A stretch of 64,000 nt of DNA from a virus, in UHGV virus genome UHGV-0090252; one strand, 5' to 3'. Position numbers and translations under genes: made by a program. The notes under the pieces were generated by a model. The model was not told the DNA's origin. It saw only the letters and a list, made by a program, of their open reading frames with translations, and ran no database searches. Position 1 is the first letter of the stretch, and the number at the start of each line of letters is the position of its first letter. Shown in pieces: positions 62,405 to 64,000 of this stretch.

Positions 62405-62760
62405 GGAAATTTGGTGAGTATACTGAGCAGCATAAACCAACGGGTACTCACCAGCATCACTTAAGAGTTTTTTGAAAAGGGTTTTTAAGTGATGTTCGGT
62501 ATAGTCAGGCACTGTGCTGCTTGGTGAGGTGCGGCTAGGTCAGGTAAGACATGGTATGTCGAGGTGTTGTGGGGTCTGGTCAGGTATGGGTAGTTAGTCT
62601 CAGCTACATTAAAATGAGACTTACCTTTTTAAAAGGTCTTTAAATAGGGTCTTTTAATAAGGTCTGGTCGTGTCCGGTTCGGTAGTGTTGGGCTTGGCTT
62701 GGTCTGGTCTGGTAAGGGTGGATGGTAGTAGCCACGTTAAAAATCTACCAAGTTTCTAAA
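62405..62760 (+). repeat. G+T-rich strand-biased repeat blocks with conserved AAAAGGTCTTTAAATAGGGTCTTTTAATAAGGTCTGGT core
   Basis: GGT-periodic tracts at 62470-62590 and 62650-62740 separated by hairpin AGTCTCA...TGAGACT plus TTTTT and the conserved core at 62626-62662. Confidence 0.65.
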
Positions 62761-62825
62761 GAGTCTTCTATTGAGGGTTCTTTACAAACAACTTAACAAT
62801 CAACTAAAGTGTGGAGCTAAATGCT

Positions 62826-63413
62826 ATGAAACTGTTAAATATCAAAATCACTGGTACTCGTCCTTTCCTGAGCCACGCTGATACGCTGTCAGACCCATTA
62901 AATCCTCTGACAAAATATCACAAGTCTCTGTCCAGTAAACGTAAAAAGACTGACGAAGACTATGCGCTCTTAGCAGAAAGTCAACTGGTAACTTCTTGTT
63001 ACTACGATGAGCAACTTGGTTTTGTTATGAACGGTGAGATGATTGAGGCTTGTATCAAGTCTGGTGCAAAACTCAACAAACTTGGTAAGGTAATTGACCG
63101 AGCCATTATGCTGACAGATGTAGTCTTCCCAATGACTATCAAGAACTGTCCAGCAAACCCACAAGAACTTGCTAAGAATCCAGACTTTATCTATGCTAAG
63201 TCTGTTAAGATTGGTACAGCACGAGTTATGAGCTACCGTCCAATCTTCCGTGACTGGTCTGTAGAGTTCGGTTTGATGTTCGATGAAGAGCAAATTACCA
63301 AAGAAGAACTCTTGATGGTTCTGGAAAATGCTGGTAACCTTTGTGGTGTAGGTGATTGGCGTCCACGCTTTGGTCGTTTTTCTGTAGAAGTTATTTCAGA
63401 AGGTAACGTTTAA
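62826..63413 (+). CDS. hypothetical protein
   Basis: ORF track 62811-63413 trimmed to second ATG ([10 protein letters not shown]). Confidence 0.5.
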
Positions 63414-63415
63414 TT

Positions 63416-63856
63416 ATGAATACAAAAGCATTAGCAGCAAAGTTTAGTTACGGTGACACTGTATCACACTCTGAGATGGATACCTTCTTAGGTATTGTGA
63501 AGCCAACTTATCAAGGTGACATTGTTAAGTACGAAGATGAAATGAAGGCTTATGCGCTTACACGTCTAAACCGACTTGAGAAGTTTATTGAGAAGCTTCT
63601 TAAAGAAGAGAAGATTTATCTGGTTGCTTCAATGGGTGTTGGTTATCGTGTGGTTGAACCTAAGCATCAAGCAACTATTGCAAAACGTAAAATGTCTGGT
63701 AAGATTGGTCGAGCTTTAAAGCAAGCCACTCAAGCAATTGAGAATGTGAACACTATGGCACTTAGCCATCAAGAACGTTCACGACTAATTGAACAGCAAA
63801 ACCATTTAGCTGCTATGAAAGCTAACATTAACAAGCAACGTAGAAAACCTTTCTAA
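63416..63856 (+). CDS. hypothetical protein (146 aa)
   Basis: ORF followed by terminator. Confidence 0.5.
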   Translation: MNTKALAAKFSYGDTVSHSEMDTFLGIVKPTYQGDIVKYEDEMKAYALTRLNRLEKFIEKLLKEEKIYLVASMGVGYRVVEPKHQATIAKRKMSGKIGRALKQATQAIENVNTMALSHQERSRLIEQQNHLAAMKANINKQRRKPF

Positions 63857-63867
63857 GTTGACTAGGC

Positions 63868-63890
63868 AGCCTCTTCGGAGGCTCCTTTTT
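63868..63890 (+). terminator. rho-independent terminator
   Basis: AGCCTC-TTCG-GAGGCT hairpin followed by TTTTT. Confidence 0.7.
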
Positions 63891-64000
63891 AAAAGGTCTT
63901 TAAGAGGGTCTTTTAATAAGGTATGGTTCGGTCAGGTAAGGTTAGGCGCTGTAAGGTGCGGTCTGGTTGGGTTTGGTTGGGTATGGCGATGTAAGGTGCG
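63891..64000 (+). repeat. second copy of the conserved core (AAAAGGTCTTTAAGAGGGTCTTTTAATAAGGTATGGT) followed by a G+T-rich block
   Basis: same core as 62626-62662, again immediately after a terminator; runs to window end. Confidence 0.65.

Follow-up and report, generated by a model that had tools for sequence, protein, structure and literature searches.

The 64,000 nucleotides (nt) of viral DNA analyzed here (UHGV virus genome UHGV-0090252, called the window in the following) belong to a Felixounavirus, i.e., a Felix O1-like myovirus and coliphage, and the region of interest is the end of the window, positions 62397-64000, in which a putative promoter, two genes for small RNAs (vrRNA-a and vrRNA-b), the protein-coding genes vipr and vap1, a terminator, and a third RNA gene (vrRNA-c), cut by the window end, succeed one another on the plus strand, with a fourth RNA gene (vrRNA-d) expected beyond. 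With a probability of about 95%, we consider this region to be a type II locus of the Viral Interference Programmable Repeat (VIPR) system, essentially the one published for phage SUSP1 in two preprints (bioRxiv 10.64898/2026.04.26.720920 and 10.64898/2026.04.26.720927). The G+T-rich blocks within it are genes for vrRNAs, the guides of the VIPR system, and are therefore an element that has already been described and is not new. An initial annotation of the same DNA had reported these blocks, together with a conserved core preceding them, as matching no known element; that statement is withdrawn, since the locus is the VIPR system of the near-identical phage SUSP1, with which the window shares 95% nucleotide identity over the locus. 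Window positions 62200-63966 also match the end of the record of Escherichia phage pinkbiff with 99.4% identity, and matches to this segment exist in 228 phage records.

Three blocks with a C content of 10-16% stand out. At a threshold of at least nine GGT triplets per 80 nt, they are the only segments called within the 64 kb (62504-62607, 62632-62740, and 63881-64000; window mean 1.1), and their GGT density is 9-14 per 100 nt as compared with 1.3 in the rest of the window. All three are found on the plus strand, and no ACC block, equivalent to a GGT block on the minus strand, exists within the window, so that the blocks of the initial annotation are real. Their periodicity is real as well, whereas the exact unit had to be corrected from the GGT-based one given there: autocorrelation reaches 0.44-0.62 at lags of 5, 10, 15, 20, and 25 nt against about 0.25 elsewhere, which establishes a period of exactly 5 nt and rules out an 8-nt periodicity that had been considered. 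The unit is NNGGY, with GGY fixed and NN free, and its phase is held without insertions or deletions over 11-19 units. The repeat tract of vrRNA-a (62496-62590) consists of 19 such units, GGY being degenerate in its 5' half, that of vrRNA-b (62659-62718) of 11-12 units, and that of vrRNA-c (63918-64000) of 16-17 units up to the point where the window ends. According to the preprints, a vrRNA comprises 9-16 YNNGG repeats, at least four being the threshold of the published search, and then a 3' tail that does not vary and contains a pseudoknot (10.64898/2026.04.26.720920, 10.64898/2026.04.26.720927). The array of vrRNA-c is identical to one of phage Alf5, in which a pseudoknot tail, another conserved head of type B (see below), and a fourth vrRNA gene follow; by this likeness, vrRNA-d of the window phage would lie just beyond position 64000.

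The 3' tail of vrRNA-a (62588-62621, plus strand) is an H-type pseudoknot formed by GTAG/CTAC and AGTCTCA/TGAGACT. Its 11 pairs in two interleaved helices are paired in 143 of 143 cells (100%), and three of these pairs display compensatory double changes, while controls slid along the sequence pair at 24-35%. The corresponding 3' pseudoknot of a SUSP1 vrRNA has been resolved by cryo-electron microscopy (cryo-EM) according to the 2026 preprints. An attenuator that a TRAP-like protein would bind, with two hairpins as alternatives, was considered as well and rejected, as both hairpins are the two stems of one and the same pseudoknot. The tail of vrRNA-b (62717-62749, plus strand) is of a second, vipr-proximal type (GGTGGATGGTAGTAGCCACGTTAAAAATCTACC), is identical to the tail of SUSP1 vrRNA1, and is also present on vrRNA genes of E. 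coli satellites. An intrinsic terminator follows vap1 (63868-63893, plus strand; hairpin 63868-63883 plus CCTTTTTAAA), and its T-run doubles as the 5' arm of the head hairpin that comes next. The hairpin with a T-run which the initial annotation had placed before both copies of the core is thus a canonical intrinsic terminator at the second copy, whereas at the first copy it is stem 2 of the vrRNA-a tail pseudoknot followed by TTACCTTTTT, and the terminator scan makes no call there.

The gene vipr (62826-63413, plus strand) codes for a 195-amino-acid protein resembling the repeat-associated mysterious proteins (RAMPs), which is identical at 192 of 195 positions (98.5%; E 8.5e-129) to PDB entry 36pp, "SUSP1 Vipr protein", the one match of the Vipr family profile among solved structures. 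The GGY-contacting residues H17, E71, M72, R138, C173, D177, W178, and R179 are all located in stretches identical to 36pp; T175, which is also in the paper's list of GGY-contacting residues, fits the numbering of neither the window Vipr nor 36pp. An AlphaFold2 model of Vipr (predicted local distance difference test score 95.8) has Csm3/Cas7 as its best solved folds in a PDB copy predating 36pp. The 2026 preprints class Vipr as a RAMP of minimal build, with an RRM core, a G-loop, and a thumb, and relate it to Cas5, Cas6, and Cas7. Its family counts more than 500 proteins from phages and prophages and is without a Pfam domain. The following gene (63416-63856, plus strand; 146 amino acids) is assigned by its position as vap1, for vipr-accessory protein, with a putative function in DNA binding; its product is 99% identical to that of the SUSP1 gene in the same position, homologs lie directly downstream of vipr homologs in two other loci, and no Pfam family matches it. 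Searches of the flanking open reading frames (ORFs) against Pfam and PHROGs gave no family of known function, and an Rfam search of the region gave neither a CRISPR direct-repeat family nor any other family. Vipr homologs were also noticed in a lambdoid prophage and on a 1.7-kb contig, neither of which is the satellite described below.

Upstream of the first vrRNA gene, a σ70-like promoter sequence (TTGACA-16 nt-TATACT; 62397-62424, plus strand) agrees with the consensus at 11 of 12 positions, is identical in SUSP1, typing phage 1 (TP1), and Alf5, and presumably drives transcription of the locus. A perfect 8-bp inverted repeat (GGTGAGTA...TACTCACC, 62413-62452), retained in these same three phages, overlaps its -10 hexamer and may be an operator, its 5' arm preceding the probable transcription start. 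In the interval from the ligase gene to this promoter, positions 62212-62400 hold an ORF for a very basic protein of 62 amino acids (phrog_5428); the same slot of Alf5 (1054-1200 of the compared locus) holds an unrelated ORF for a hydrophobic protein of 48 amino acids, and a small variable slot thus exists beside the locus.

Comparison of 20 related loci, among them TP1, Alf5, and 17 IMG/VR contigs including SUSP1 and SUSP2, clarifies that the region is modular, each module consisting of a conserved head (type A, B, or C), a hypervariable pentamer tract, and a conserved tail. In the 915 units of these loci, G occupies position 3 in 84% and position 4 in 98%, T (91%) or C (9%) fills position 5, and no constraint is seen at positions 1 and 2, all of these frequencies being somewhat inflated by a unit detection rule that favors GGY. 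The modules are confined to the two intergenic regions flanking the vipr/vap1 gene pair and always lie on the gene strand in all 20 loci. The initial proposal of a strand-specific functional element that simple hairpins do not explain was correct. Module counts vary from 1 to 3 on either side among phages with nearly identical flanking genes, and even where two phages agree at about 95-99% in the remainder, their NN strings are not the same. A blind parse of SUSP1 recovered one array upstream and three downstream, and one upstream and three downstream of the genes is also the number of vrRNAs given for SUSP1 in the 2026 preprints.

The steps of the mechanism have been shown for SUSP1 as far as the preprints report them, and for the window phage they are proposed on the basis of near-identity. 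Each G+T-rich block would be the repeat tract of a vrRNA of about 100 nt ending in the conserved 3' pseudoknot tail, on which Vipr would polymerize with one protomer per pentamer. Vipr would bury each GGY and present the NN dinucleotides, which would then pair with a double-stranded DNA target at interrupted positions (NNxNNx...), every third base of the target being skipped, and transcription of the target would be silenced. The natural targets would be competing mobile elements, in this case an E. coli satellite of 11-12 kb with tail genes related to those of the phage. In SUSP1, the vrRNAs are expressed as RNAs of about 100 nt, are recovered together with Vipr upon its purification, and silence a reporter that carries a match (2026 preprint), and in the cryo-EM structure each GGY is held by a Vipr protein with NN presented for reading the DNA target (10.64898/2026.04.26.720927). 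Among the functions initially offered for the blocks, protein-binding arrays come closest: the arrays would indeed be bound repeat by repeat, by Vipr, but as RNA and with NN reading a DNA target. That the blocks might be promoters of a class serving middle or late genes is not supported, as they are the transcribed product and the cores lack σ70-like hexamers.

The proposed reading of NN can be examined on the satellites. According to the 2026 preprints, 18 of 20 identifiable targets in the SUSP1 clade are located on a satellite phage, and the published target threshold is a match of at least 80% of NN under the rule of one skipped nucleotide (NNxNNx...). A BLAST search of complete E. coli genomes with the locus finds 128 chromosomes which carry, in unannotated DNA, a vrRNA-like tract with a phage-type tail. 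The element concerned has 11-12 kb, is integrated in yecE or between tonB and yciI, and codes for a serine recombinase, a "baseplate" protein that is 71% identical at the amino acid level to that of the phage, and a tape-measure protein related to that of the phage; evidently, it is the satellite of the preprint. When 61 unique guides of the relatives are compared with five satellite loci, 35 reach at least 80% of NN with one skipped base, as opposed to 0, 1, and 2 with 0, 2, and 3 skipped bases, respectively, and the 1-nt skip rule is thus independently reproduced with the relatives' guides. The window phage's own guides (a, b, and c from the window, d as predicted from Alf5) were scored against six satellite loci. 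Guide a matches 30 of 38 NN positions (79%) in the satellite tape-measure gene (shuffled guides 23.3 +/- 0.9, maximum 27; about 7 standard deviations), the match being in frame with the skipped bases at wobble positions, and this target region is present in 299 E. coli genomes. Guide d matches 20 of 24 (83%; shuffled 17.5 +/- 0.6) at one satellite locus, and guide c matches 25 of 34 (74%; shuffled 21.5 +/- 0.7, about 5 standard deviations) at another (loci L145 and L149, respectively). The first satellite locus examined, that of strain EC12, gave no match above background for the window's guides, no self-target above background was found, neither in the window nor elsewhere in the genome, and an exact-pattern scan of IMG/VR with ten units of guide c gave no match (0).

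The satellite in the EC12 chromosome (NZ_CP070229; 14900-15110 of the extracted locus, L144) contains a vrRNA gene of its own, with a σ70 promoter, 12 GGY/NN units, and a terminator, and its tail is that of the vipr-proximal vrRNA of the phage. No vipr homolog was found in the E. coli satellite elements, so that a satellite vrRNA would have to use the Vipr of the helper phage.

An association between protein and arrays was also recovered from a pattern scan, independently of the preprints. Exact matches to six consecutive GGTNN units occur in at least 120 IMG/VR contigs; among the matches listed, many are plain satellite repeats such as (GGTCT)n, and about 30 unrelated contigs carry clusters of hypervariable arrays. 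A local tblastn search detected a Vipr homolog in 32 of the 120 contigs, adjacent to the arrays wherever the geometry was checked, and among the matches listed these 32 are approximately the contigs with complex arrays plus a few with single ones. Vipr homologs thus track complex arrays, which indicates that protein and arrays form a conserved two-part system. One contig (L056; IMGVR_UViG_3300025122_000199) codes for a full-length Vipr homolog of 198 amino acids (22% identity, E 3e-14). Directly after this distant homolog (2170-3410), more than 12 tandem vrRNA-like arrays with a distinct conserved tail (AAGGTAAGGAATGGTTTAATGAATTTAATTT) are encountered, and after the arrays comes a small ORF, Cys-rich at its N-terminus, which from a reading of the sequence may code for a Cas4-like nuclease. 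Further multi-array contigs are L042, L044, L052, L065, L071, and L116.

Nothing was found that contradicts the assignment to VIPR. Some points nevertheless weigh against it or reduce its reach. Expression of the vrRNAs and their binding by Vipr are predictions for the window phage drawn from SUSP1. Also, guide b has no target in the six satellite loci, and, although three of the four guides are above chance, guide d alone reaches the published threshold there.

The head preceding each vrRNA, situated where one transcription unit has ended and the next repeat tract has yet to begin, contains the conserved core of the initial annotation, which stands up in that two copies were found in front of G+T-rich blocks and that heads are conserved 5' of vrRNAs in the relatives. 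Copy 1 (62631-62663; 33 nt; AAAAGGTCTTTAAATAGGGTCTTTTAATAAGGT) and copy 2 (63891-63922; 32 nt; AAAAGGTCTTTAAGAGGGTCTTTTAATAAGGT) differ by a 1-nt insertion or deletion and one substitution, and a search with the initially given consensus, allowing up to three mismatches, therefore finds the second copy and misses the first (0 matches in 100 shuffled sequences). Both positions stand, except that the start originally assigned to copy 1, 62626, takes in the preceding T-run. On the sense RNA, the cores fold into hairpins of 17-20 bp with G·U pairs and -11.5 to -16.6 kcal/mol (z -2.2 to -5.7). The type A head (CATCACTTAAGAG...AAGGGTTTTTAAGTGATG; 62455-62494), a variant of the core immediately 5' of vrRNA-a, is a 20-bp hairpin of -16.6 kcal/mol (z -5.7) and is kept in all relatives, a loop insertion being tolerated; in some relatives (L012 and L016/L018/L019), about 22 nt (AAATTATATTCGAWAGAGTATCTCAT) are inserted in the loop with both stem arms intact. 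Type B heads contain core copy 1 (62623-62663, 5' of vrRNA-b; -13.6 kcal/mol, z -3.2) and core copy 2 (63883-63922, 5' of vrRNA-c; -11.5 kcal/mol, z -2.2). A head-like hairpin of type C (62752-62789; -13.6 kcal/mol, z -4.2), located like the others on the plus strand, lies between vrRNA-b and the ribosome-binding site of vipr; no repeat tract follows it, and it is kept in the relatives. When both strands of types A and B were folded, the antisense folds were weaker (-9.5 kcal/mol for type A and -8.8 kcal/mol for type B). In 21 variants of type B, 94% of the cells are paired, and all observed substitutions keep pairing (U·G to C-G, U·G to U-A, and U-A to U·G).

The main text of the preprints describes the 3' tail of vrRNAs and contains nothing on the 5' flank, the promoter, or maturation (10.64898/2026.04.26.720920, 10.64898/2026.04.26.720927); it is also reported in the 2026 preprints that the Vipr filament grows in the 3'-to-5' direction. 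We infer, as an unproven suggestion, that each vrRNA, and the vipr mRNA as well, is delimited on its 5' side by the core, which would act as a signal for processing or for stopping the filament. The core and the tail may also bear some resemblance to BoxA-like or ops-like antitermination motifs, a reading that was dropped with the identification of Vipr. The more specific proposal that the core is an undescribed biogenesis element, a sense-strand hairpin that would be cut by a double-strand-specific RNase or would stop the 3'-to-5' growth of the Vipr filament, is a tentative one, which we regard as quite possible though short of an even chance. Two results speak against it. Covariation in the core hairpin is not significant, shuffled alignments giving the same score as the observed one with too little variation present, and a role at the DNA level, as promoter or operator, is therefore possible. 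In addition, tandem motifs of the form TAA[AG]AG...CTTT with a loose similarity to the core occur elsewhere in the genome nine times as compared with 0.37 expected, six of them in intergenic regions, although folding reveals no strong hairpins in these, unlike in the VIPR heads. One such motif (10700-10900, minus strand) is situated in the 5' untranslated region that follows a promoter (TTGACA-17-TAAATA) at about 10.85 kb, and another (19560-19980) in a gene-free stretch of about 400 nt (19.6-20.0 kb) crowded with short repeats (CTTGTTAA, CTGTAAAG).

These motifs in other intergenic regions also count in favor of the cores being dedicated promoters for each vrRNA and for vipr, possibly read by a phage-modified host RNA polymerase, in which case the G+T-rich blocks would be just the transcripts made from them; this explanation concerns the core only and is compatible with VIPR. 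Every type B core comes after a terminator or a tail resembling one and stands immediately before a unit that appears in SUSP1 as an RNA of its own of about 100 nt, and a head-like element is also found before vipr. However, the promoter scan calls no σ70-like -35/-10 pair in any core, the type A core is located downstream of a near-consensus σ70 promoter and hence inside a transcript, and pairing that depends on G·U is possible on the sense strand only and is kept by all substitutions. Satellite vrRNA genes make do with an ordinary promoter (TTGACG-17-TATAAT) without a core. We therefore consider dedicated promoters the less likely though still a serious alternative, and a role of the core at the RNA level is favored because no promoter is called in it, type A is contained in a transcript, type C precedes vipr, and satellites dispense with it. 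If the core were indeed a biogenesis element, its hairpin would play the role that the repeat hairpin has in the processing of CRISPR precursor RNA.

As to the blocks themselves, two explanations without guides have to be weighed against vrRNA genes. G-rich structured nucleic acid, either a two-tetrad G-quadruplex of the type (GGN3)n or a stabilizer of R-loops for replication initiation, would account for GG runs at 3-nt spacing, which fit a two-quartet pattern, and for C-poor blocks that occupy the non-template strand downstream of a promoter and beside replication genes. Neither structure needs the pyrimidine after GG, which is as conserved as GG itself; moreover, arrays co-occur with Vipr homologs in unrelated phages regardless of replication genes, each GGY is held by protein in the reported cryo-EM structure, and the NN bases carry target information. 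The guide-target matches effectively refute this explanation, raised in the initial annotation as G-quadruplex or structured DNA, and its probability is very low. No more credible are, at a physical genome end, packaging or terminus signals or recombination hotspots of Chi-like GT-rich DNA, hotspots having also been suggested initially. On the positive side, GT-rich DNA is favored by RecA, and the GenBank record of pinkbiff, the closest relative, starts and ends inside the repeats. On the negative side, the locus is internal in other complete records, there is no Chi octamer, hypervariability is explained by the targeting data, and pinkbiff, when set beside Alf5, is short of about 60 nt precisely from one core to a second, identical one, as expected for an assembly break at a repeat.

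The pinkbiff record (MN850603; L002/L003) begins in the middle of a type B core (1-100) and ends inside vrRNA-c, at the equivalent of window position 63966, and the approximately 60 nt absent at its junction relative to Alf5 (2661-2990 of the compared locus, L141) correspond to a tail plus half a core. A genome terminus or pac site, suggested by these record ends, was rejected for this reason; the literature on Felixounavirus termini was uninformative.

With the locus being a VIPR system, several consequences emerge. The four vrRNA genes, vipr, and vap1 are "hypothetical" or unannotated in the Felixounavirus records examined. VIPR is a newly reported form of RNA-guided DNA recognition, whose code is discontinuous and whose RAMP protein has been proposed to be older than CRISPR. 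The genes for its RNAs were picked from raw sequence alone, and the signature, phased NNGGY pentamers that are strand-specific and flank one small gene, is therefore recognizable. The present work also amounts to an independent check of published VIPR rules, i.e., the association of protein and arrays and the 1-nt skip.

Among known systems, the type II VIPR of SUSP1 is the closest. Vipr is 98.5% and the vap1 product 99% identical, and both phages share the order of the operon, the σ70-like promoter, the type A head, the two tail types, the GGY/NN pentamer code, and the satellite family as target. They differ in that the window phage has two vrRNAs upstream and two downstream, with NN strings of its own, in place of one and three in SUSP1. 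Class 1 CRISPR-Cas systems with their Cas7/Csm3 filaments resemble VIPR in the RAMP fold, in the use of one protomer per fixed number of guide nucleotides, in a variable guide with a conserved, structured handle as its cap, and in guides that are hypervariable between close relatives. In contrast to CRISPR-Cas, the VIPR locus has no CRISPR repeats, no cas1/cas2, and no machinery for spacer acquisition; its conserved unit is 3 nt of every 5 with no repeat-spacer architecture, and it comprises two protein genes only. The VIPR guide is read discontinuously, two of five RNA bases against two of three DNA bases, and type II VIPR is virus-encoded and silences without cleavage.

With regard to the core only, imperfect hairpins of about 20 bp lie between the polycistronic units of the early mRNAs of phage T7, where they are processed by RNase III; VIPR heads are similar to them in size and placement and unrelated in sequence, and cleavage of the heads is putative by this analogy. 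TRAP on the trp leader and HutP on hut mRNA, which have no sequence or fold relationship to VIPR, also are oligomeric proteins that read a triplet about every 5 nt with spacers that are not conserved. In these systems, however, the spacers are devoid of information and binding leads to attenuation in cis, whereas in VIPR it is the spacers that hold the information, and DNA is acted upon by the complex in trans.

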